A stretch of 10,013 nt of DNA from a virus (taxonomy: Duplodnaviria; Heunggongvirae; Uroviricota; Caudoviricetes): IMG/VR virus record IMGVR_UViG_2740892372_000013, positions 1-10,013 of that record; one strand, written 5' to 3'. Below, piece by piece: positions 1 to 8,599 of this stretch. Both the position numbers and the translations under genes were made by a program. Under the pieces are notes generated by a model, which did no database searches, was not told where the DNA came from, and saw nothing but the letters and a program-made list of their open reading frames with translations. The first letter of the stretch is position 1, and each line of letters starts with the position of its first letter.

Positions 1-85
1 GGTCTTTCCTCGTTACCAGTGCCGTCACTATGACGGTTAAACAGATGACGATCAGGGCGATTAGCATCGCCTTTTGCTGCTTCAT
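1..85 (-). CDS. hokD: Hok/Gef-family type I membrane toxin, 5' part only (first 28 codons; gene runs off the window start)
   Basis: Reverse complement of 1-85 translates from ATG (83-85) as MKQQKAMLIALIVICLTVIVTALVTRKD, the hydrophobic N-terminus typical of Hok/Gef peptides and matching my memory of HokD/RelF. AGGAG lies 9 nt upstream of the ATG. Paralog assignment is from memory; family assignment is firm. Confidence 0.7.
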   Translation of the reverse strand, partial: MKQQKAMLIALIVICLTVIVTALVTRKD

Positions 86-406
86 AGCCTGCTTCTCCTT
101 GCCTTTCGGCACGTAAGAGGCTAACCTACGTGTGTAGAGCATAGATATGGCCTCAGATTAATGTTAAGCGTCTTGCCGGACGCGTAATGTTAACTGGGGC
201 TTTTCTCTATCTGCCTTTTGGTGTTCATGCCTGAGACAGATAGCCTCAAGCACCCGCAGCAATTTTACTTAACTCCCCTTTTCCCACAAATCGTTTTTAT
301 CCCTATTGGTAATGTTCTCCCGATGTGGGATTCCCACATTGGAACGAATTCAATCAGTTAAAGACTCATCAGAATCTCACCTTTCTAAGTGCCCACAGGT
401 GAGGCA

Positions 407-495: not shown

Positions 496-1290
496 GTGGA
501 TCGGTGCGGTAATTATTTACTTAAAGATGGTCGCAGTTTAGGACAAGGGAGTTTTGGCGAAGTATTTAAGGTTGATGTCTATAACTTAACCCAGACCCAC
601 ATGACCACATATGCTCGCAAATACTTTTCACCTTGCCCGGACTTTGACAAGACCGCTATAAAAGAGTTGACTGATTTAAGACAGCGTTTTTTAGTTGAGA
701 TCAAAACACAATGCACTCTCAATAGAATAAACTATGATTCAATAGCGCCAATAGTTTTATTTAATACAAATGGTGATAAACCTTATTTTGTTATGGAATT
801 GGCAGAGTGTAACTTATATGAAGCCATCCGCAATGGTATGAACTACGCGGAGAGGAAGTCTGCTGTTACTCAGATTTTAAAAGGAATTATCACCATACAT
901 GAAAACAACTATATACATCGTGATTTAAAACCAGGAAACATACTTTATTATGCCGATGGAAAGTATAAAATATCTGATTTTGGTCTAGTAAAAGACAGAG
1001 ATACCTTACGGGCCGAAATCAAAACAAAATTTAAGCCTAATCACATGGGCACAGATGGATATCGAGCGCCCGAAATACATGATAGCGGTCTTTTTTCTTT
1101 TCAAAGTGACATATTTGCAGCAGGTAAAATTATCACTGATATATATCCCACAGAAAGAAGTGAAAAATTAAAAAGATTGATTGCAAAATGTTGCGCACAT
1201 TGGCCTGAAGAACGATATCAAAGCACACGGGAGTTACTGGAAGATTTTTTAAAAGTGACGGGGGAGGTAAATCATGAAGAACATAATTGA
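496..1290 (+). CDS. Eukaryotic-like (Hanks-type) Ser/Thr protein kinase, catalytic domain only, 264 aa
   Basis: GTG start with a GGGGG Shine-Dalgarno. Glycine loop LGQGSFGEV (res 15-23), beta3 lysine in YARK (K42), catalytic loop HRDLKPGN (141-148), DFG (161-163), and activation-loop GTDGYRAPE (APE 191-193). The gene is AT-rich relative to the flanking DNA. Confidence 0.85.
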   Translation: MDRCGNYLLKDGRSLGQGSFGEVFKVDVYNLTQTHMTTYARKYFSPCPDFDKTAIKELTDLRQRFLVEIKTQCTLNRINYDSIAPIVLFNTNGDKPYFVMELAECNLYEAIRNGMNYAERKSAVTQILKGIITIHENNYIHRDLKPGNILYYADGKYKISDFGLVKDRDTLRAEIKTKFKPNHMGTDGYRAPEIHDSGLFSFQSDIFAAGKIITDIYPTERSEKLKRLIAKCCAHWPEERYQSTRELLEDFLKVTGEVNHEEHN

Positions 1291-1990
1291 AATGGCATGT
1301 TTTAGCCTAAAACAACCCCAAAAAAAAGAAAATGAAGACTTTTATTTACCGCCATCTTTTGATAGCGATTTTAACATTGTCTTTGCAGTAGCTGATGGGG
1401 TTGGTTCCTCTGAACATTCAATGCTTGCATCTCATGCAGCCATTCGTGGCATTAGACACACGCTAGGCACTTCCTTTTTCTCAATTGAAAGTGCATTTCA
1501 TTCAGCTAAAAAAGAAATTGACAATTTAGATATTAGCACTGCCACAACCTTAACAATTGTTCAGATCAAAAAAAATGAAGTGTTAATTGGTCATTCCGGT
1601 GATTGCCGAGTATACTTCAATAAAAACAATAAACTAAATCAGTTAACCACTGATCAAACGAGATATCAAGAACTCCTTGATTCTGGTGAACATAAATTAC
1701 GTAATTTAAGAAATCATAAAGAACGGCTATCTTCAGTCCTAACGAATGCTTTATCAAATACAACGGATTTGAATTTTGAGTTAATGTCTTTTCCGATTAG
1801 CCAGCTAATTTATAATGGCTATCTTCAACTCTATGCAATGACTGATGGTGCCTATAAGCATTGGGATGTCAGACCAAGGTTTTCTGAGAAGACAATGCTC
1901 TCACCAACAGCTTTTGCGAGTAGTTTAAGAAAAAGGATTGAGAAAAACATAATGGATGATTACACCTTTATAGGCGTAAAAGTAACCTAA
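1274..1990 (+). CDS. PP2C-family (PPM) Ser/Thr protein phosphatase, 238 aa
   Basis: ATG preceded by GGGGAGGT at 5-nt spacing; overlaps the kinase 3' end by 17 nt. Motifs FAVADGVGS (D41-G44, PP2C motif 1), GHSGDCRVY (GDSR-like, D110), LTTDQT and YAMTDGAYK (D191-G192), in the same order as bacterial PP2C such as PrpC/Stp1. Confidence 0.8.
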   Translation: MKNIIEMACFSLKQPQKKENEDFYLPPSFDSDFNIVFAVADGVGSSEHSMLASHAAIRGIRHTLGTSFFSIESAFHSAKKEIDNLDISTATTLTIVQIKKNEVLIGHSGDCRVYFNKNNKLNQLTTDQTRYQELLDSGEHKLRNLRNHKERLSSVLTNALSNTTDLNFELMSFPISQLIYNGYLQLYAMTDGAYKHWDVRPRFSEKTMLSPTAFASSLRKRIEKNIMDDYTFIGVKVT

Positions 1991-2143: not shown

Positions 2144-2248
2144 TCATATCACGCCATGCTTCCACCGCGGTAACTCTACATAGTCCATTAACAGTTCATG
2201 CCATTCTTCAAAATTGGCGTTATATTTAGTTGAAGCAAAATCAGCCAT
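2144..2248 (-). pseudogene. Truncated and diverged copy of the 58-aa small ORF (34 codons)
   Basis: MADFASTKYNANFEEWHELLMDYVELPRWKHGVI. The first ~26 codons align with copy B (3570-3746), then homology is lost at the junction with the AT-rich island. Confidence 0.3.
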
Positions 2249-2249
2249 T

Positions 2250-2423
2250 TTATTCTTCCTCTTCGTCTTTTATTTCGTGATATGAGTAATTGCAGTAGTT
2301 AAAGAAAATATCTTTTGCTTCGTCATGTATTTCATCAGGCGTCGCATCATCATCCACTTCGAATTCATCCTCGAAATCTCCACCGGCTATTCCCGTTTCA
2401 ATAATTATTTTGAACTTTCGCAT
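2250..2423 (-). CDS. Small highly acidic protein, copy A (57 aa)
   Basis: MRKFKIIIETGIAGGDFEDEFEVDDDATPDEIHDEAKDIFFNYCNYSYHEIKDEEEE. Differences from copy B are two synonymous changes plus a stop in place of Gln58. Confidence 0.5.
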   Translation of the reverse strand: MRKFKIIIETGIAGGDFEDEFEVDDDATPDEIHDEAKDIFFNYCNYSYHEIKDEEEE

Positions 2424-2470
2424 TTAACTACCGCCCTGCCGGACAGCCTCCTGATGTTCTGAGGGCGCCT

Positions 2471-2480
2471 CCCCCCCCCC
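2471..2480. repeat. Homopolymeric C10 tract (G10 on the coding strand) between ORF118A and acidic ORF A
   Basis: Ten consecutive C; the paralogous position in copy B (3969-3977) has nine. Confidence 0.9.
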
Positions 2481-2519
2481 TCCGGTTAAGGATTAAATTT
2501 TTAACAGAGCTAAATTTAA

Positions 2520-2876
2520 TTATTCAGTTCTGGATTTTGTCGCCCTGCGTATCCGCGCTTTCGCGTTACGCTCAATCTGAATTAGCTTTTCTATATTTTT
2601 TCGCCTTTCCCGCTCCTCCTGACGCAAGAGCCTTACATCATCTGCCAGTCTGGTTTCTCTTTTCGCCACAGAGAGCATCCAGTCAAATGGCTCCACAACT
2701 GCACCGCAGATTTTACAGCGGACCTGACGCTCTTTTTCGTCAACCCGGACAGAGGCGTGATGGCAATATGGTCTTTCCGATGGCTCATAGAGAAAATTAA
2801 CCTGATTACGTGGGTCATCCTCTTTTACCGGAAATAAAACGATATTGCTTAACTCATCTTCTGGTTTTATTTCCAT
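2520..2876 (-). CDS. Hypothetical prophage protein with Cys/His zinc-ribbon-like motif and basic coiled-coil tail, copy A (118 aa)
   Basis: GGAGAGGAG immediately 5' of the ATG. Motif C-H-H...C-x2-C (PYCHHASVRVDEKERQVRCKICG) and an Arg/Lys/Glu-rich C-terminus. Protein is identical to copy B; all 3 nucleotide differences are synonymous third-position changes. Confidence 0.7.
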   Translation of the reverse strand: MEIKPEDELSNIVLFPVKEDDPRNQVNFLYEPSERPYCHHASVRVDEKERQVRCKICGAVVEPFDWMLSVAKRETRLADDVRLLRQEERERRKNIEKLIQIERNAKARIRRATKSRTE

Positions 2877-3573
2877 GCTCCTCTCCTTTGATGCGAATGC
2901 CAGCGGCGCGGATTGCAGCGATGACTTCAGAAACTTTGTATGCCATTACCGTTTGGTAATCATCGTGAAAATCTGTTCGATGAAGCATGCTGCTACGTTC
3001 TGGGAGCGATATTTCCCGTGCTTCCAGTTCTGCAATGCGCTTCTCTGCGGATTCCAACGCCGCAACCAATTCGTCTACAGTTCCGGCAGCTTGCAGTGCG
3101 TAATCGGTAATAGCCATCTCATGATCAATTTCAGTACCGTTCTCATTCGTTGAGGTGATAGCAAAATAATCAGAGTCGATTTCGTTATCAGCTAAGTGGC
3201 GTAGCGTATCGGCAACAAGCCGGCCGTTTTCGATTAGCAGCTTCCCTTCCGTAAGCGCAATCTCCTCGTTCTCCTGGTCGCGTGATTTGATGTATTGCTG
3301 GTTTCTTTCCCGTTCATCCAGTAGTGCCAGCGCAACATTTGGATTAAAGGCAGCAATAAATTCAGCGTTTGCGTAAGCCTGAGCATCTGTTTCAACCAGG
3401 CAGTTAACATGACATTCTGCAATTACGCCACCGGGCTCTCCTTTCCATTTTTGACAAACAAAAACTCCTGTTATATTCCCATGCTGATTGCCCGATGTAT
3501 GCCCTACGATGTAGCATCCTTTAGTTGCTTTCTCTGCTGCTTCACGCAGCGCCTGATAGTCAATCTCGCTCAT
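2854..3573 (-). CDS. Ead/Ea22-like prophage protein (239 aa)
   Basis: N-terminus MSEIDYQALREAAEKAT and the segment DAQAYANAEFIAAFNPNVALALLDE resemble the conserved N-terminal region of Ead/Ea22-like lambdoid proteins (from memory). Central coiled-coil ELVAALESAEKRIAELEAR. Its ATG overlaps the stop of the upstream small ORF (ATGA). Confidence 0.6.
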   Translation of the reverse strand: MSEIDYQALREAAEKATKGCYIVGHTSGNQHGNITGVFVCQKWKGEPGGVIAECHVNCLVETDAQAYANAEFIAAFNPNVALALLDERERNQQYIKSRDQENEEIALTEGKLLIENGRLVADTLRHLADNEIDSDYFAITSTNENGTEIDHEMAITDYALQAAGTVDELVAALESAEKRIAELEAREISLPERSSMLHRTDFHDDYQTVMAYKVSEVIAAIRAAGIRIKGEEHGNKTRR

Positions 3574-3746
3574 TCATCGCCCCACTCATCACAATATGCT
3601 TCGACCGGATTTTTTCCTGCTTCATAATCATCACGCCATGCTTCAGCATCAGCAGCACTGCCACCACGTAACTCTGCATATTCCATTAACAGTTCATGCC
3701 ATTCTTCAAAACTGACGCTGTATTTAGTTGAACCAAAATCAGCCAT
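3570..3746 (-). CDS. Small acidic hypothetical protein (58 aa)
   Basis: MADFGSTKYSVSFEEWHELLMEYAELRGGSAADAEAWRDDYEAGKNPVEAYCDEWGDE. Start overlaps the end of acidic ORF B by 8 nt; stop overlaps the Ead-like ATG. Not in the ORF track (under 60 aa). Confidence 0.4.
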   Translation of the reverse strand: MADFGSTKYSVSFEEWHELLMEYAELRGGSAADAEAWRDDYEAGKNPVEAYCDEWGDE

Positions 3747-3921
3747 TTTGTTCTTCCTCTTCGTCTTTTATTTCGTGATATGAATAATTGCAGTAGTTAA
3801 AGAAAATATCTTTTGCTTCGTCATGTATTTCATCAGGCGTCGCATCATCATCCACTTCGAATTCATCCTCGAAATCTCCACCGGCTATTCCCGTTTCAAT
3901 AATTATTTTAAACTTTCGCAT
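3739..3921 (-). CDS. Small highly acidic protein, copy B (60 aa)
   Basis: ORF track entry; roughly 40 percent Asp/Glu. Conserved with copy A through synonymous-only changes except the C-terminal stop/Gln difference. Confidence 0.55.
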   Translation of the reverse strand: MRKFKIIIETGIAGGDFEDEFEVDDDATPDEIHDEAKDIFFNYCNYSYHEIKDEEEEQNG

Positions 3922-3968
3922 TTAACTACCGCCCTGCCGGACAGCCTCCTGATGTTCTGAGGGCGCCT

Positions 3969-3977
3969 CCCCCCCCC
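3969..3977. repeat. Homopolymeric C9 tract, paralogue of the C10 tract
   Basis: Nine consecutive C at the position equivalent to 2471-2480. Confidence 0.9.
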
Positions 3978-4016
3978 TCCGGTTAAGGATTAAATTTTTA
4001 ACAGAGCTAAATTTAA

Positions 4017-4373
4017 TTATTCAGTTCTGGATTTTGTCGCCCTGCGTATCCGCGCTTTCGCGTTACGCTCAATCTGAATTAGCTTTTCTATATTTTTTCG
4101 CCTTTCCCGCTCCTCCTGACGCAAGAGCCTTACATCATCTGCCAGTCTGGTTTCTCTTTTCGCCACAGAGAGCATCCAGTCAAATGGCTCCACAACTGCA
4201 CCGCAGATTTTACAGCGGACCTGACGCTCTTTTTCGTCAACCCGGACAGAGGCGTGATGGCAATATGGTCTTTCCGATGGCTCATAAAGAAAATTAACCT
4301 GATTACGTGGGTCATCCTCTTTTACCGGAAATAAAACAATATTACTTAACTCATCTTCTGGTTTTATTTCCAT
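4017..4373 (-). CDS. Hypothetical zinc-ribbon-like basic protein, copy B (118 aa; ORF track extends it to a GTG at 4430)
   Basis: Same protein as copy A. The ATG at 4373 has GGAGAGG directly upstream and is the start shared with copy A, so the 19-codon upstream extension is probably not translated. Confidence 0.7.
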   Translation of the reverse strand: MEIKPEDELSNIVLFPVKEDDPRNQVNFLYEPSERPYCHHASVRVDEKERQVRCKICGAVVEPFDWMLSVAKRETRLADDVRLLRQEERERRKNIEKLIQIERNAKARIRRATKSRTE

Positions 4374-4445
4374 GCACCTCTCCTTTGATGCGAATGCCAG
4401 CGGCAATTGAAGCCTGATAGCTAATTTCACTCACAGCACCACCTC

Positions 4446-4826
4446 CTAAAAATTCCCCTGACAGAACGCCAGTACACGCTGCATAACTTCGCTATTTCGG
4501 CACTCACTGCAAATTATGTTCTGATGCCTGTCATAGCGGCGTATTTCTCCGTCTGGTAACTTTCGAATCAATGTCTGGTCGGTTGTTTTCTCCGCTGCCT
4601 TACGCCATACGCGATACACCTGTTCTGATGCAAAAACACCGTATTTACCGGGCATGTATAAATCGCCACAAGCCAGTACATCCACAAGGCAACGTCTGAC
4701 TGAATGCCAGCCTGCTCCCGTCGCTCTCTCCAGTTGTGATATCGTCATGCGTTCATTTTTGCGTACCAGCCCGATAATTCGGGCCTTCAGTTCTTCACGC
4801 TGTTCGTGTGTAAAAGGTTTCGCCAT
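4446..4826 (-). CDS. Hypothetical prophage protein, possible winged-helix fold (126 aa from ATG; track lists a TTG start at 4841)
   Basis: ATG at 4826 preceded by GGAGG at 5-nt spacing. The stop of the upstream gene (4842-4844) lies in this ribosome-binding region, suggesting coupling. Confidence 0.6.
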   Translation of the reverse strand: MAKPFTHEQREELKARIIGLVRKNERMTISQLERATGAGWHSVRRCLVDVLACGDLYMPGKYGVFASEQVYRVWRKAAEKTTDQTLIRKLPDGEIRRYDRHQNIICSECRNSEVMQRVLAFCQGNF

Positions 4827-4841
4827 AAGCGCCTCCGGCAA

Positions 4842-5612
4842 TCACTTTTCCGACACAATACGACCGGATGAATCGACAATCTGCCGAACAATATCCCGGT
4901 GCTTGTTCAGCTCCCGCAGCGCGGCGCAGACACGCTCCCACTTCTGAACCTGACCTTTTGCCCGGCGCAGCTCGCGGTTAGCCACATGCAGCGATGGTAA
5001 AATCAGACCATCCGGATGTTTTCTGGTGAACAACGGCTGTGACTGCACTGTGACCGCCACACTTTCAGTTTTTATTTCTTCCTGTGTTGCGGCTTCCCGG
5101 ACTGGTAACGCAGCACCTGCTGGCTGAGGAAAGGCCTTACCATCATTTTCCGTTACCAGCGCGGCTTTCGGCTCTGCTGGTAAATTATCGCCCGGCATGC
5201 AGTAACGAAATCTACCGTTCTGATTAACGCGTGCCAGCCGCCCCGTTGCGGTTACCACCGCCAGCGTGGAAGCAACCTTGCGAGTACTGACACCGAACTT
5301 ACCCGCTATTTCTTCACAGGTTTTAGCCCCCTCCTGAGCGATAAACTCAATCATCATGTTAGCGCTAACTTTTGGAGCGACCTCTTCGGTCAGCATATCC
5401 TGTGTTTCAGATTTTACTGGCCGCTCTTCGGTTACCCGGGATTCACCTTCGACAGCCAGAAACCAGGTGTGACCCGTTTTATCAACAACGCCATTTTTTT
5501 TGAGCTCCCACAGTTCGTTGAGAACTTCTTCACGGCTGATATCAATTCGTGCCGCCAGTTCAACAGAATTGGCTTTACCCATCGCTTTCAGTGCATGCAA
5601 TACGGTTTCCAT
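4842..5612 (-). CDS. Hypothetical prophage protein with two predicted helix-turn-helix / winged-helix segments (256 aa)
   Basis: GGAGGA upstream of the ATG. Segments NSVELAARIDISREEVLNELWELKKNGVV and KTCEEIAGKFGVSTRKVASTLAVVTATG look like DNA-binding HTH. No family recognised with confidence. Confidence 0.65.
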   Translation of the reverse strand: METVLHALKAMGKANSVELAARIDISREEVLNELWELKKNGVVDKTGHTWFLAVEGESRVTEERPVKSETQDMLTEEVAPKVSANMMIEFIAQEGAKTCEEIAGKFGVSTRKVASTLAVVTATGRLARVNQNGRFRYCMPGDNLPAEPKAALVTENDGKAFPQPAGAALPVREAATQEEIKTESVAVTVQSQPLFTRKHPDGLILPSLHVANRELRRAKGQVQKWERVCAALRELNKHRDIVRQIVDSSGRIVSEK

Positions 5613-5645
5613 TAAAACTTCCTCCGGATAAAAATACTTCTCAAA

Positions 5646-6308
5646 TCAGACAAAACCAGCCGCTTTCCGGCGTTCATACTCCTGTTTCAGCAACTCAATT
5701 GGCGTTGGTCCCAACGGGCGTTTTGGTGCCGCCAGTTGTCGCCGTACTGGCGGAACGCTCATCCCGTTACCAACATGCTTTGCCCATTTCGTCAGTTGCC
5801 GTTCCGCAAGTCGTTTTAACTCGCCCTGCGTCATCTGGCGCTCAATCCCTCTGGTACGCATTTCGAGGCAGATGTGGTACAGCACAGGCTGTGGCCACGG
5901 GTATTTATCACTCCCGTCGTATCGCCAAGATTCATTGCGCCAGCGCCGATACTCTTCCATCACGGCATCCACCGTAAGACCAAATGGATTTGCCCCACTC
6001 TCCGAAATCAGCGCAACAAACTCAGCCAGGTCCGGGGGCCACGTTTCACCCGCCCGGCAGCGGTCCATGCACTGACGGCACACCAGACGGATTTGCTGTT
6101 CAGTCATCGCACCAATCTGGGCAATCCAGAGCTTCGAAGGTGCGGCCCCGTTCTTCTGAGTCCAGCGGTTCGAATACACCTCCCCCATGAGCTCCCACAG
6201 CTTCCAGGCCGTTTCCGTTGCTGATAAATCCGTTGTCACGTTCCCACTGTTCGCGTGCAGCCCGGATTTCCTGAACTGCCCGTGATGCCGTGCCACCTGA
6301 TGCTGCAT
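5646..6308 (-). CDS. Lambda P-like replication protein (helicase loader); start codon uncertain
   Basis: By-eye alignment to lambda P: WPPDLAEFVALISE versus FLPSPGQFVAWCRE, DKYPWPQPVLYHICLEM versus ESYPWKSNAHYWLVTNL, and the GELKRLAERQ...PPVRRQLA tail. The track start at 6308 has a GGGGGAAG ribosome-binding site but overlaps the O-like gene by 209 nt; in-frame ATGs at 6188 and 6107 are alternatives. Confidence 0.7.
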   Translation of the reverse strand: MQHQVARHHGQFRKSGLHANSGNVTTDLSATETAWKLWELMGEVYSNRWTQKNGAAPSKLWIAQIGAMTEQQIRLVCRQCMDRCRAGETWPPDLAEFVALISESGANPFGLTVDAVMEEYRRWRNESWRYDGSDKYPWPQPVLYHICLEMRTRGIERQMTQGELKRLAERQLTKWAKHVGNGMSVPPVRRQLAAPKRPLGPTPIELLKQEYERRKAAGFV

Positions 6309-7137
6309 GGCTTCCCCCCTTGCTGACTGGTTTTACCTGTGCCCTGACGTGCTGCACGTGGCGGGCAAATTTCTGCTCCCACTGAACCTGCGTGAAAACC
6401 TTCCCCTCCGCCATCCAGTAATCCCGGAATGCGGCAAGCTCAGCAGGTGTAAATTCCGGCTCAGGCAGAGCCATACCCCACACTGCTGCCCGTTGTCGAA
6501 AATCCGGCGACGGCTGCCAGACAGTAGTCATCGAAAATTTCCCGATCGGTTCGCTCAGGCCGTCCAGGTATTCAGGTTCGGCTGTCTGCAACGGCGCACC
6601 ATTCGACTCACTGGTCGGAATACTCTCGCGCGCGTTATGTGTGGGGTTTAATTCTGTATCTGTATCTGTATCTTTATCTGTCGTGACTTGTCGTGACAGA
6701 TGCGTGACACGTCGTGACTCATCGTGACAATCAGCATTATGTTTCCGCAGCTTTTCCCGCTCCCGCTGCGCTCTCTTGCGCTCTGCCGGGGATTTTGCCG
6801 TTTGCGAAACGTTACCATTGTCCTCTTTCAGCACCTGACGTTTTTCCCATCCGGAAATAAGGTCACCATCCAGAACCCGCCCCTGCATTGCATGCAAAAT
6901 TGAATCAATTACGTCTTCCGTCACATCAAGCGCACTTGCTAAATCTTCCGTCGTGACATCAATGTGACCACGTAGTGACACGCCGTGACATGTCGTGACA
7001 TTTCGTGACGCGCTCACCAGAAGATGGATATACACTGCCATCACTGTTGCGATTGGCTGTCCTGATACCCTGGCAATCGTTCGCCACTTGGGGTCATTTG
7101 GCATGTCATGCCACAATCTGAGCCAGGCATTAGCCAT
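6100..7137 (-). CDS. Replication initiator (O-like) protein, about 345 aa (track lists a GTG at 7143)
   Basis: Sits immediately upstream of the P-like gene. Has a low-complexity acidic linker (TDKDTDTDTE...) and two internal arrays of iteron-like repeats in its 5' half, as for ori inside lambda O. ATG at 7137 preceded by AGAGGTGA. Confidence 0.6.
   Translation of the reverse strand: MANAWLRLWHDMPNDPKWRTIARVSGQPIATVMAVYIHLLVSASRNVTTCHGVSLRGHIDVTTEDLASALDVTEDVIDSILHAMQGRVLDGDLISGWEKRQVLKEDNGNVSQTAKSPAERKRAQREREKLRKHNADCHDESRRVTHLSRQVTTDKDTDTDTELNPTHNARESIPTSESNGAPLQTAEPEYLDGLSEPIGKFSMTTVWQPSPDFRQRAAVWGMALPEPEFTPAELAAFRDYWMAEGKVFTQVQWEQKFARHVQHVRAQVKPVSKGGSHAASGGTASRAVQEIRAAREQWERDNGFISNGNGLEAVGAHGGGVFEPLDSEERGRTFEALDCPDWCDD
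6651..6728. repeat. Iteron-like array 1: three TCTGTA hexamers followed by five (T/G)CGTGAC heptamers at 10-11 bp spacing
   Basis: CGTGAC at 6682, 6692, 6703, 6713 and 6723. TCTGTA at 6653, 6659 and 6665. Confidence 0.8.
6951..7009. repeat. Iteron-like array 2: six GTGAC-core repeats at 10-11 bp spacing
   Basis: GTGAC cores at 6953, 6964, 6975, 6985, 6995 and 7005, all on the same strand. Confidence 0.8.
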
Positions 7138-7205
7138 ACTCACCTCTTCTGATACCGAACTTTACCCACGAACTTCCGAAAGAAATCCGGTATAAATATT
7201 GTTGG

Positions 7206-7631
7206 TCAATGCACAACAACTGCATTACCAGGCTGACCACCACTGTTAGTCAGGGTGCCCCAGGCGATCGCTACAGCGACAAAATCATCCACATCTTTCA
7301 CCAGCCGATCCCGTCGTTCGACGATCTCCCGGTAATATTCAGAACTGTGACTGCGCATACGGGCCACCAGCAAAGGCGGCATCGCCTTTTCGATCGCCGG
7401 TAACAGCGCCTGAATTTTTTCAACCGCATCAGGCGTATCCTTCTCCACCCAGCGGAAAATTTTCTGGGTATTACGGGCCAGGGCTTCCGGATGGCTGTCG
7501 TCGTACAGTTCCGGGAACGTCATCCCAAGTTCGAAATAAGTCCGGGCTATTTCAGCTGCAGGCACTTTCTCACCATCAGGATATGCCCAGGCATTCATCG
7601 CCATGCGGATGTGTTCATGTTTGATTTTCAT
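7206..7631 (-). CDS. YdaT-family prophage regulator (CII-position protein), 141 aa
   Basis: Starts MKIKHEHI and ends VVVH, as I recall for YdaT-family proteins. Lies directly downstream of the cro-like gene with an ATGA start/stop overlap, as in the ydaS-ydaT arrangement. Confidence 0.55.
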   Translation of the reverse strand: MKIKHEHIRMAMNAWAYPDGEKVPAAEIARTYFELGMTFPELYDDSHPEALARNTQKIFRWVEKDTPDAVEKIQALLPAIEKAMPPLLVARMRSHSSEYYREIVERRDRLVKDVDDFVAVAIAWGTLTNSGGQPGNAVVVH

Positions 7632-7855
7632 GAATCATTTTTCCTTTCGTTCGAGGTGTTATCCTTCTTTTTGTAAAGTTCTGGGTTCAACGATAATTTT
7701 CCCTTGGAGTATGCAACTGCTTCAGCAGCCCTCCCCTTGGGAACTATTTCGCCGGGACGCTTACGCCACATGTATATAGCTTCTCGGGTTACCCCATAAA
7801 AATCAGCGACTCTTTGGACAGAACCAAAAAACTGGACAAGTTCATCAACTCGCAT
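7628..7855 (-). CDS. Cro/DicC-like small HTH repressor (75 aa)
   Basis: Divergent from the cI-like gene. Motif FFGSVQRVADFYGVTREAIYMWRK is typical of Cro/YdaS/DicC HTH proteins. AGGAGA ribosome-binding site. Confidence 0.7.
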   Translation of the reverse strand: MRVDELVQFFGSVQRVADFYGVTREAIYMWRKRPGEIVPKGRAAEAVAYSKGKLSLNPELYKKKDNTSNERKNDS

Positions 7856-7954: not shown

Positions 7955-8599
7955 ATGGAAAGCCTTGGCATTAGGCTTAAGAAACTCAGAAAAGACAAAG
8001 GTCTGACCCAAGTTGAACTTGGCAAGCTTTCTGGCGTAACTGGGGTAACAATAGGATACTGGGAGAAAGATCTAAACGAACCAGGTAGCAAAGCTCTTAG
8101 TAAATTAGCCCTAGCACTAGGCACTACTGAGTCCTATCTCCTGTATGGAGTATCATCACCTGAATCATCCCTTGTGCAGAAAAATCCAGGTACCCAAATC
8201 CCATACCTTTCTTGGGGAGAAGCGATTTCTTTCCTAATATTAAAAGGAGAGAAAACTATGGGAAATGTCGACAGGATCACCACATTCTTTGATGTCAAGG
8301 AGGGAGATTTTGCCGTTTCAATGCCTGATGATACTATGCACAATCCATCAGGGTCCCCAAGCATTCCAGTTGGAGCCACAGTGATCATGAGGCCTGGCGA
8401 AAAATATAAAAATGGTAGCATCGTCGCAGTAATAGTCCCAGATCCACTCACAAACGAACCATCCATGACTATAAAAAAATTAGTTATTGATGGAAAGCTC
8501 GTGTACTTAGCCCCCCTTAACCCACGCTATCAATCATCCTTACTTACACCGGAATGTAACATCGTTGCTGTAGCAAAAGGTGTTCAGTTCAGCCTCTAG
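7955..8599 (+). CDS. CI-like phage repressor (N-terminal XRE HTH plus C-terminal S24 LexA-type autopeptidase domain), 214 aa
   Basis: HTH LTQVELGKLSGVTGVTIGYWEK. S24 signature Ser in FAVSMPDD and Lys in TIKKLVIDG. Divergent to the cro-like gene. Confidence 0.85.
   Translation: MESLGIRLKKLRKDKGLTQVELGKLSGVTGVTIGYWEKDLNEPGSKALSKLALALGTTESYLLYGVSSPESSLVQKNPGTQIPYLSWGEAISFLILKGEKTMGNVDRITTFFDVKEGDFAVSMPDDTMHNPSGSPSIPVGATVIMRPGEKYKNGSIVAVIVPDPLTNEPSMTIKKLVIDGKLVYLAPLNPRYQSSLLTPECNIVAVAKGVQFSL

Follow-up and report, generated by a model that had tools for sequence, protein, structure and literature searches.

As the distribution of both families shows, the zinc-ribbon-like protein (ZnR) and the small hyperacidic DUF7167 protein that are encoded side by side in the window (i.e., the whole stretch of 10,013 nt that was analysed) are independent accessory cassettes of a mosaic early region. 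The original prediction had considered them a possible charge-complementary pair. This is not supported, since each family is widespread without the other, the two genes lack translational coupling, and some genomes have a third gene between them. That is, a shared DNA block is the sole reason why both genes travel together in E. coli lineages. With moderate confidence, we favour a joint explanation, which combines such independent cassettes with a role of ZnR as a nucleic-acid- or partner-binding factor and of DUF7167 as an acidic decoy or inhibitor.

The window represents the early rightward operon of an E. coli lambdoid prophage of the Rac/Qin type and is closest to O145:H28. It shows 99.8% identity to a prophage of E. 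coli O145:H28 RM12581, which is ordered cro, ydaT, O, P, DUF1627, DUF977, ZnR, DUF7167, kinase/PP2C moron, hok, and Q; the RM12581 genome carries a single copy of the ZnR-DUF7167 pair. Within phage ArgO145, the same genes are located between exo and int. The features of the window are as follows.

2147..2248, minus strand: truncated remnant of the a58 gene 3' of copy A with 33 codons and a stop codon (the homology ends at 2170)
2170..2907, no strand: direct repeat, copy A (partner 3668-4404)
2250..2423, minus strand: DUF7167, copy A, 57 aa (an earlier stop removes QNG)
2520..2876, minus strand: ZnR, copy A (protein identical to copy B)
2854..3573, minus strand: Ead/Ea22-like protein, 239 aa (Pfam Ead_Ea22 at 8e-34)
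3570..3746, minus strand: a58, 58-aa acidic protein (ORF; C-terminal part of phrog_519 at 1e-21)
3668..4404, no strand: direct repeat, copy B (partner 2170-2907)
3739..3921, minus strand: DUF7167, copy B, 60-aa hyperacidic protein (PF23768; phrog_1997 at 9e-31)
3922..4016, minus strand: non-coding spacer between ZnR and DUF7167, 95 nt, mosaic junction (sense-strand G-run)
4017..4373, minus strand: ZnR, copy B, 118 aa, putative zinc ribbon plus long basic helix (ORF; phrog_1621)
4446..7855, minus strand: upstream genes of the early (PR-type) operon, i.e., cro-like, YdaT-like, DnaT-domain O, P, DUF1627, and DUF977 (Pfam matches and RM12581 RefSeq annotation)

Both predicted ORFs (118 and 60 aa) are thus present on the minus strand. 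By its 3' end, the Ead/Ea22-like gene extends 23 nt into the start of ZnR copy A, and an Ea22-like gene immediately upstream of ZnR is recurrent in E. coli loci and is also found in Enterobacter phage Tyrion. On the other side, the start of a58 (net charge -12) and the stop of DUF7167 share 8 nt. The a58 gene follows DUF7167 in essentially all E. coli-type loci that encode DUF7167, i.e., in E. coli the linkage of DUF7167 is tighter to a58 than to ZnR.

Across divergent lineages, we observed no co-occurrence of the two families as it would mark an obligate module. No DUF7167 gene is encountered within 4 kb of ZnR at the six distant loci (Kluyvera, three Erwinia, Pantoea, and Photorhabdus); ZnR is flanked there by NinG/RusA/DUF1364-type genes and Q-type antiterminators. 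According to the annotation, DUF7167 is also missing beside ZnR in Klebsiella phage ST15-VIM1phi2.1 (order NinE-NinG-ZnR-YlcG-Q), Serratia phage Parlo, and Enterobacter phage Tyrion. Outside the E. coli block, ZnR was found near DUF7167 in 0/31 IMG/VR loci and in 0/~10 other contexts examined. DUF7167 occurs without ZnR in a Klebsiella prophage, a Pseudomonas element, P22-like early-left regions, and E. coli phage Rac 442/2 as well as in Guernseyvirinae phages and Enterococcus Herelleviridae phages.

A similar picture is obtained within E. coli. Here, 1820 of the 5426 genomes match the pair region and just 1236 show both genes adjacent to each other; about one third of the E. coli genomes with either gene lack an intact adjacent pair. 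Each gene is also found solo in many E. coli genomes and in phage-plasmids, and for ~13 of the 77 evaluable IMG/VR loci a 99-100% identical ZnR is followed by a different gene. Adjacency of ZnR and DUF7167 is limited to sequences with more than ~90% nucleotide identity and thus reflects shared descent. We also considered a location in plasmid leading regions and rejected it. In conjugative plasmids of Klebsiella, DUF7167 is part of an integrated prophage rather than of a leading region, and the E. coli plasmid copies of ZnR reside among phage-type accessory genes (as in pO111_2).

Neither tight physical nor translational linkage of the two genes was found, i.e., ZnR and DUF7167 are separated by the 95-nt spacer, and a 70-aa gene (a70) sits between them in ArgO145 and O145:NM FWSEC0002. 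The spacer shows no promoter- or terminator-like site, no Rfam match, and no unusual RNA fold (z -0.28). Its G-run, which is a C-run on the plus strand, spans 9 nt in copy B (3970-3978) and 10 nt in copy A (2471-2480).

The pair was described as duplicated and under purifying selection, and both statements hold. Both genes recur within a direct repeat of ~738 bp, the two copies of which differ by 15 substitutions and one 1-nt indel. For ZnR, these comprise 3 synonymous and 0 non-synonymous differences, while the DUF7167 copies show 2 synonymous differences and a stop/Gln change at codon 58. The pN/pS ratio is 0.037 for ZnR (19 E. coli alleles) and 0.118 for DUF7167 (10 alleles). Related arrays contain two ZnR copies that flank a70-DUF7167-a58-Ea22, and double-ZnR arrays are also found in finished genomes. 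Given the mapped repeat boundaries, the allelic differences, and these related arrays, the double copy most likely originates from recombination between two accessory blocks. That is, the blocks DUF977-ZnR-DUF7167 and DUF7167-a58-Ea22-ZnR would have undergone homologous recombination with the ZnR gene as shared homology. Because the exact two-pair arrangement is absent from the best-matching complete E. coli genomes inspected, the double copy might in principle be a chimeric assembly of two prophages; the copies however differ at 15 positions.

ZnR copy B, which the RefSeq annotation of RM12581 lists at this position as a 'hypothetical protein' of 118 aa, is preceded by an AAGGAG Shine-Dalgarno sequence 7 nt 5' of its ATG (read from the sequence). 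The protein matches phrog_1621 over its full length (E 1.8e-56) and is conserved across Enterobacterales. It contains the anticipated C-H-H...C-x2-C motif (C38-H39-H40...C54-x2-C57). Within the family alignment of 25 sequences, C38, H40, C54, and C57 are invariant while H39 is variable, such that the predicted ligand set is CxH...CxxC. Alignment and model together place these four conserved putative ligands in two knuckles on beta-hairpins, as in a zinc ribbon. The AF2 model shows a beta-hairpin at 43-54 (strands 43-46 and 51-54) followed by a helix at 63-117, with a pLDDT of ~90 across the C-terminal portion of the helix and hydrophobic residues in 10/16 of its a/d heptad positions. With regard to the Pfam zinc ribbon PF08271, ZnR stays below the gathering threshold (21.6 vs. 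29 bits), and weak matches are found in 10 of the 25 family members. A fold search of ZnR returned generic long helices only.

The strongly basic C-terminal tail expected for ZnR is found in residues 85-118 (13 K/R vs. 6 D/E; net +8 for 85-117) but does not extend to the protein as a whole, which has an acidic N-terminus, a pI of 8.9, and a net charge of just +3. The proposed resemblance to nucleic-acid-binding proteins is supported, as the combination of a predicted zinc ribbon with a basic helix makes binding plausible; the low overall charge counts against it. We consider ZnR as probably nucleic-acid-binding. Beside the N-terminal E..L.N...FP, the helix segment NIEKLIQIERNAKARIRR is invariant in the family alignment, whereas identity drops to ~45% elsewhere. 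The protein would hold one zinc by C38/H40/C54/C57 in a small ribbon and probably dimerise via its 55-residue helix, whose invariant basic end probably contacts nucleic acid or a conserved partner. As such, ZnR might serve as a small regulatory or DNA/RNA-binding factor in early phage development.

The 60-aa protein is a member of DUF7167, as it exceeds the Pfam gathering threshold of PF23768 (E 7.9e-15, 55.1 bits, cut-off 24.4), with residues 2-53 aligned to profile positions 1-60 of 60, and is a stand-alone protein of the family's ~50-60 aa with the FEV-[ED]-DDAT core. It is genuinely hyperacidic (net -15, pI 4.05), as had been noticed from the sequence. Its Asp/Glu content was overestimated at about 40 percent, i.e., it amounts to 33% (20/60) and to 35% in the 57-aa copy. 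The statement that it has no basic patch is correct except for a single basic cluster, the N-terminal MRKFK. Acidity is a family-wide property, with net charges from -3 to -17 and a mean of -10.4 among 109 representatives. The AF2 model (pLDDT 89) predicts with confidence a small beta-beta-alpha fold (beta 2-8, beta 17-23, helix 29-43).

The DUF7167 family comprises 736 clusters at 50% identity, nearly all of them stand-alone proteins of 50-60 aa, and is present in phages with either Gram-negative or Gram-positive hosts, temperate as well as virulent ones. Usually, its genes reside in replication/recombination modules, where they often overlap exonuclease or SNF2-helicase genes; one case is an opposite-strand moron within a tail module. 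A location in such modules fits a helper of phage enzymes equally well as an inhibitor of host enzymes. Our literature search returned no relevant paper on DUF7167, PF23768, the protein accession numbers, or LygF.

A role as stand-alone decoy or inhibitor is a possible function of DUF7167. The protein would form a self-contained acidic beta-beta-alpha domain of 50-60 aa that acts alone, and its likeliest role would be that of a decoy or inhibitor which covers the basic surface by which a host or phage enzyme of DNA metabolism (nuclease, restriction, or recombination type) contacts DNA. A more far-reaching reading, which we regard as doubtful, takes DUF7167 as a hitherto unnoticed and very common family of stand-alone phage inhibitors, in which a minimal acidic beta-beta-alpha domain blocks the surface by which a host nuclease, restriction, or recombination enzyme binds DNA. 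If true, these inhibitors would add a novel fold class to the DNA-competitive anti-defence proteins.

We weighed these roles against a charge-complementary complex, in which the acidic protein masks or regulates the basic helix or both proteins act as one unit. Such a complex would agree with the adjacent, equally oriented genes in the 1236 E. coli genomes and in most close IMG/VR loci, with the opposite local charges (+8 for ZnR 85-117 vs. -15 for DUF7167), and with their joint duplication in the window. We nevertheless consider it very unlikely, since every distant lineage examined has one family without the other and identical ZnR proteins are observed both with and without a nearby DUF7167. 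The solo occurrences in many E. coli genomes, phage-plasmids, and phage Rac 442/2 point in the same direction, as do the uncoupled 95-nt spacer that can accommodate a third gene and an adjacency that is confined to more than ~90% nucleotide identity, i.e., to shared descent. Even less credible is the view of the ORFs as non-functional debris of a decaying prophage and of their duplication as an assembly artefact, to which we assign next to no probability. While many database homologues are truncated or frameshifted and the best-matching complete E. coli genomes inspected lack the two-pair arrangement, both genes are under strong purifying selection and are kept over long distances (ZnR across Enterobacterales, DUF7167 across Gram-negative and Gram-positive phages). 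Furthermore, the DUF7167 model is confident and the ZnR helix well predicted, similar double-ZnR arrays exist in finished genomes, and 15 differing positions plus an indel are unlike the outcome of collapsed or duplicated reads.

Two further readings concern the individual proteins. ZnR might target a conserved host protein (RNA polymerase, a replication or a division factor) via its helix and N-terminal peptide instead of nucleic acid. In favour of this, NIEKLIQIERNAKARIRR and E..L.N...FP are invariant among otherwise diverged sequences, and other small zinc proteins of the same phage regions, such as lambda Orf73/TraR, act on RNA polymerase (PMC9239242, PMC8614690). We regard this as unlikely, given that ZnR matches neither TraR/DksA nor another characterised family and shows a single long helix after the ribbon rather than a coiled-coil hairpin before a 4-Cys finger; an arginine-rich helix end is equally typical of nucleic-acid binders. 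A comparably low probability is assigned to DUF7167 being an accessory subunit or chaperone of the phage replication/recombination machinery, which would, e.g., bind a phage exonuclease, helicase, or SSB in the manner of an acidic tail-like module. It is in line with DUF7167 genes that overlap or abut the exonuclease gene in Klebsiella Guernseyvirinae and Enterococcus Herelleviridae as well as SNF2 helicase genes, that adjoin SbcD/Mre11-like, VRR-NUC, or DNA polymerase genes, or that reside inside Erf/SSB/Dam or RecT/exo modules. Yet the adjoining enzyme varies between phages, such that there is no constant partner, and neither the window nor many lambdoid prophages have a replication or recombination enzyme beside DUF7167. 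The isolated opposite-strand moron in a tail module does not fit such a role either.

With independent cassettes as the preferred reading, ZnR and DUF7167 are ordinary lambdoid 'dark matter', i.e., two already catalogued families in a highly mosaic accessory region. The value of this result is mostly negative: the equation of 'basic plus acidic' with a pair stems from linkage in E. coli prophages and should be kept out of annotation. DUF7167 belongs to the broader small acidic phage families, and since it is broad, self-contained, and confidently folded, it could be included at low cost in screens for anti-defence proteins or nuclease inhibitors. The ZnR gene provides recurrent homology for the swapping or duplication of cassettes in such prophages and illustrates how accessory arrays grow.

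Finally, we compared both proteins with known systems. With respect to PF23768/PHROG 1997, the 60-aa protein is a full-length member that shares the F-E-V-[ED]-D-D-A-T-x-[ED]-E-I core as well as the family's acidity; no difference was found. ZnR is a full-length match of phrog_1621 and resembles PF08271 in its predicted two-knuckle zinc site on a beta-hairpin. In contrast to the TFIIB-type PF08271, its first knuckle is CxH instead of CxxC, a 55-residue basic helix follows the ribbon, and the score is sub-threshold. Profile searches of the PDB gave nothing significant for ZnR and DUF7167, and neither protein has a match in PADLOC or NCBIfam.

DUF7167 resembles DNA mimics and other acidic inhibitors (Ocr, ArdA, TifA) in being small, phage-encoded, and strongly electronegative, i.e., its 33% of acidic residues compare to 29% for Ocr and 21% for TifA (PMC11322646). 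Unlike that group, it is not located at the first-entering end of the genome, and it shows no sequence or fold similarity to known DNA-mimic or anti-restriction families. TifA itself, the type IV restriction inhibitor of enterococcal phage phi47, is an acidic non-mimic with an SH3-like fold (PMC11322646). A link to it was dismissed, as the Enterococcus DUF7167 proteins are from Herelleviridae phages of ~90-150 kb and not from phi47. A search for the FEVEDDAT pattern yielded 9 loci with the match just upstream of an S-adenosylmethionine lyase (a known anti-restriction enzyme). This association was discarded as well, since the pattern there is located in the C-terminus of an unrelated ~720-aa protein and not in a stand-alone DUF7167.

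On visual inspection, DUF7167 had resembled T7 Gp2 and lambda Orf55 in its KF..IE(T/S)...FEV pattern and in its order of beta-beta-alpha elements; Orf55 was modelled as Gp2-like (PMC8614690). We rejected such a relation based on hhalign probabilities of 0.09% (Gp2) and 0.16% (Orf55) and the absence of both from the results of the fold searches. A relation of ZnR to TraR/DksA (lambda Orf73) found no support either, i.e., none of 25 members matches zf-dskA_traR at E up to 1, and the architecture differs. Lambda Ea8.5, a homeodomain/zinc-finger hybrid, is a zinc protein encoded after ea22 with a local CRHH..V.VDE match; hhalign dismisses it as a ZnR relative (6.6%, 23 columns). Overall, no homology to lambda accessory proteins was detected for ZnR and DUF7167 (hhalign vs. 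Ea8.5 and Orf55; Pfam for TraR/DksA). Nonetheless, both occupy the same niches as the lambda nin/exo-xis accessory genes (Ea22, Ea8.5, Orf73/TraR, Orf55, NinH). Several members of this set, for which an action on transcription was proposed, are zinc proteins or small acidic proteins of the alpha/beta type. Like these genes, ZnR and DUF7167 are small, early-expressed, mosaic, and located beside Ead/Ea22-like genes.

Both the 118-aa zinc-ribbon protein (ZnR) and the 60-aa hyperacidic protein are encoded by real genes under selection. The match of ZnR to phrog_1621 is full-length, and the acidic protein matches Pfam DUF7167 (PF23768, used as its name here) well above threshold as well as phrog_1997. 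Among the E. coli-type alleles collected, pN/pS is 0.037 for ZnR (19 alleles, 5 protein variants) and 0.118 for DUF7167 (10 alleles); a58, i.e., the gene of a 58-aa acidic protein 3' of DUF7167, has 0.218. The purifying selection of the original prediction is thus borne out. The window shows a lambdoid prophage in reverse orientation, namely its immunity and early-right region, with the following features:

80-255, minus strand: sok antitoxin RNA (Rfam RF01794, 117 bits)
496-1990, plus strand: eukaryote-type Ser/Thr kinase gene (264 aa) overlapping a PP2C phosphatase gene (238 aa)
2147-2248, minus strand: truncated remnant of the a58 gene, 3' of copy A of the ZnR/DUF7167 genes
2854-3573: Ead/Ea22-like gene, between the repeat copies
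3570-3746, minus strand: a58, between the repeat copies
3739-3921, minus strand: DUF7167, copy B
4017-4373, minus strand: ZnR, copy B
7955-8599, plus strand: LexA-type repressor gene
Minus strand: other early genes (cro-like, YdaT-like, DnaT-domain O, P, DUF1627, DUF977)

The prophage of E. coli O145:H28 RM12581/RM13514 is 99.8% identical to the window. There, the early genes are followed by ZnR and DUF7167, then by a Ser/Thr-kinase/PP2C moron in convergent orientation, and then by hok/sok and the Q antiterminator; given this order, ZnR and DUF7167 occupy the position of lambda's nin region. The RF01794 match places a type I toxin-antitoxin module (hok/sok) at the window's left end. The kinase/PP2C pair is GC-poor (33-38%) and runs convergently to the early operon, i.e., it has a moron layout; since the kinase matches the PADLOC models mad6, PD-T4-6 and Stk2, the pair may serve the prophage in defence or exclusion, with a phosphatase of its own. 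The a58 protein (net charge -12) corresponds to the C-terminal part of phrog_519. Its gene overlaps the DUF7167 stop codon. Practically all E. coli-type loci have it 3' of DUF7167, so that the two are linked more tightly than ZnR and DUF7167.

The observation behind the original prediction is confirmed with small numerical corrections. Its interpretation is partly supported: the protein types and the selection are upheld, but not the charge-complementary pairing. No DUF7167 gene lies within 4 kb of distant ZnR genes (Kluyvera, three Erwinia, Pantoea, Photorhabdus), which are flanked by NinG/RusA/DUF1364/HNH-type genes on one side and a Q-type antiterminator on the other. DUF7167 is also missing next to ZnR in Klebsiella phage ST15-VIM1phi2.1 (NinE-NinG-ZnR-YlcG-Q), Serratia phage Parlo, Enterobacter phage Tyrion (Ea22-like gene, then ZnR) and, mostly, P1-size E. 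coli plasmids. Conversely, ZnR is absent from the DUF7167 loci of a Klebsiella prophage, a Pseudomonas element, a Yersinia prophage, lambdoid exo-xis regions, P22-like early-left regions (Erf-SSB-Dam-DUF7167-theta-xis-int), phage Rac 442/2 (DUF977-DUF7167-a58) and a tail module in which DUF7167 is an opposite-strand moron. DUF7167 overlaps an exonuclease gene in Klebsiella Guernseyvirinae, an "exonuclease" gene in Enterococcus Herelleviridae and a SNF2 helicase gene in a podovirus-like contig, again without ZnR, and none of 31 IMG/VR DUF7167 loci shows a ZnR match.

Even within E. coli the two genes separate. The pair region is matched in 1820 of 5426 complete genomes, both genes being adjacent in only 1236 and the remainder having ZnR only or DUF7167 only. 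ZnR proteins with 99-100% identity to that of the window precede quite different downstream genes. Overlaps join DUF7167/a58, a58/Ea22 and Ea22/ZnR, whereas ZnR and DUF7167 lie 95 nt apart and are not coupled; ArgO145 and other genomes have a further gene, a70 (70 aa), at exactly this point, which makes this the loosest junction of the block. Adjacency was observed solely in sequences above about 90% nucleotide identity, i.e., it is linkage by descent.

The duplication of both genes was correctly noted: a direct repeat (2170-2907 vs 3668-4404) holds ZnR and DUF7167 twice. Its copies are 15 substitutions apart, plus one base in a plus-strand C-run of the ZnR-DUF7167 spacer (10 C at 2471-2480 vs 9 C at 3970-3978). 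This run is a slippage-prone, non-coding site, and a search for an RNA structure or signal there detected none. The ZnR proteins are identical and the sole protein difference is that DUF7167 of copy A ends three codons earlier; the five differences between the coding copies within the window are all synonymous, more likely because two alleles came together than because the copies diverged once duplicated.

In the closest finished genome the pair is present once, and the 1.5 kb between the copies is missing. Two-ZnR arrays exist in other finished genomes and IMG/VR contigs (including loci L081 and L092), e.g., Ea22-ZnR-a70-DUF7167-a58-Ea22-ZnR-a70 in O145:NM FWSEC0002 (L119). In these three loci, a70-DUF7167-a58-Ea22 lies between two ZnR copies. 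In such prophages, ZnR seems to be the homology used repeatedly when cassettes are gained or duplicated, and the simplest reading of the duplication is unequal homologous recombination of two prophage blocks sharing ZnR (and DUF7167), which is ordinary for mosaic prophage regions. The two-pair arrangement could, less likely, be a chimeric assembly, as its exact form was not found among the best-matching complete E. coli genomes inspected; the repeat copies are, however, clearly distinct alleles. We are highly confident that ZnR and DUF7167 are independent genes and that the duplication is of mosaic origin.

We also examined the Ea22/ZnR junction (window 2854-2907 and 4374-4404; loci L022, L086, L110, L119). 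The Ead/Ea22-like gene ends 23 nt inside ZnR in copy A, many E. coli loci and Tyrion, and the 31 nt upstream of copy B (4374-4404) resemble a relic of the same 3' end. Ea22-ZnR fusion proteins are present in databases (P0002, P0004, P0043), and this adjacency holds over greater divergence than that of ZnR and DUF7167.

ZnR homologues are found only in Enterobacterales and their phages (Escherichia, Shigella, Salmonella, Klebsiella, Kluyvera, Yokenella, Serratia, Erwinia, Pantoea, Yersinia, Pluralibacter, Photorhabdus; weaker matches in Hafnia, Providencia, Morganella and Cronobacter phages). Across 25 sequences with identities down to 45%, C38, H40, C54 and C57 of the predicted C-H-H...C-x2-C motif are invariant while H39 varies, so the predicted zinc site is CxH-x13-CxxC. 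An N-terminal motif E..L.N...FP is likewise invariant and the C-terminal stretch LR.EE..RR.NIEKLIQIERNAKARIR almost wholly so. In the AlphaFold2 model (pLDDT 75 overall, about 90 in the C-terminal part of the helix), the N-terminus is disordered and is followed by a small ribbon formed by a beta-hairpin and a single helix of 55 residues with plausible heptads (hydrophobic at 10/16 a/d positions). The predicted basicity applies to the end of this helix (net +8 in the last 33 residues), the whole protein being only +3. The nearest named family, the TFIIB zinc ribbon, scores below threshold, and comparison with PDB sequence profiles and folds was uninformative. This architecture suggests a dimeric zinc-ribbon/coiled-coil protein that would bind nucleic acid or a conserved partner via the basic helix end; a nucleic-acid-binding or regulatory role is our best, if tentative, guess.

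DUF7167 is hyperacidic as predicted (copy B: net charge -15, pI 4.05), with 33% Asp/Glu (20/60) rather than roughly 40 percent. Acidity is a family trait (net -3 to -17, mean -10.4 for 109 representatives). An exhaustive profile search (E up to 1e-3) yields 736 clusters at 50% identity, almost throughout stand-alone 50-60 aa proteins with few tandem duplications and incidental fusions, sharing the core F-E-V-[ED]-D-D-A-T-x-[ED]-E-I. The confident AlphaFold2 model (pLDDT 89) shows two strands, a helix and a variable acidic tail. Sequence and structure searches gave no significant match to Ocr, ArdA, Ugi, p56, Gp2, Arn, anti-CRISPRs or other solved structures, the best matches being weak and beta-grasp-like, and our literature search found no paper mentioning DUF7167. 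At L115/L116 (3501-3668), a lone DUF7167 gene lies on the opposite strand within a tail-gene cluster, a moron layout, which shows that it can work by itself.

Since DUF7167 is self-contained, acidic family-wide, broadly spread across phages of unrelated hosts and usually located in early DNA-metabolism or accessory regions, we rank that of a decoy or inhibitor acting alone on a DNA-binding enzyme as its single most likely role, although even this is possible rather than probable. Next comes an accessory to the phage's own recombination/replication enzymes, which we consider somewhat less likely. The sole lead worth keeping is DUF7167 as a widespread and inexpensive candidate in screens for anti-defence proteins or nuclease inhibitors. 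A 223-aa homologue (P0363) combines DUF7167 with a zinc ribbon (CxxC...CxxC) at the N-terminus and a poly-acidic/proline tail of roughly 100 residues; its ribbon is apparently unrelated to ZnR, given its ligands, and a Pfam search at E up to 0.01 assigns it to no family.

Several resemblances failed on testing, i.e., ZnR to Ea8.5 and TraR/DksA, and DUF7167 to Orf55, Gp2, Ocr and TifA. A link of DUF7167 to SAM lyase, an anti-restriction enzyme, was a false positive of the pattern search. In a group of IMG/VR phages (L125, L128, L140, L153, L157, L158, L163, L169, L171), the gene directly upstream of an S-adenosylmethionine lyase gene encodes a protein of some 720 aa. It has a C-terminal FEVEDDAT motif with a weak match to the DUF7167 profile but is not a stand-alone DUF7167. 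ZnR and DUF7167 are members of catalogued families of unknown function and an ordinary lambdoid prophage feature. They fall into the same "dark matter" class as the lambda nin/exo-xis genes (Ea22, Ea8.5, Orf73/TraR, Orf55), several of which have proposed roles in transcription and the lysis-lysogeny decision (PMC8614690, PMC9239242).
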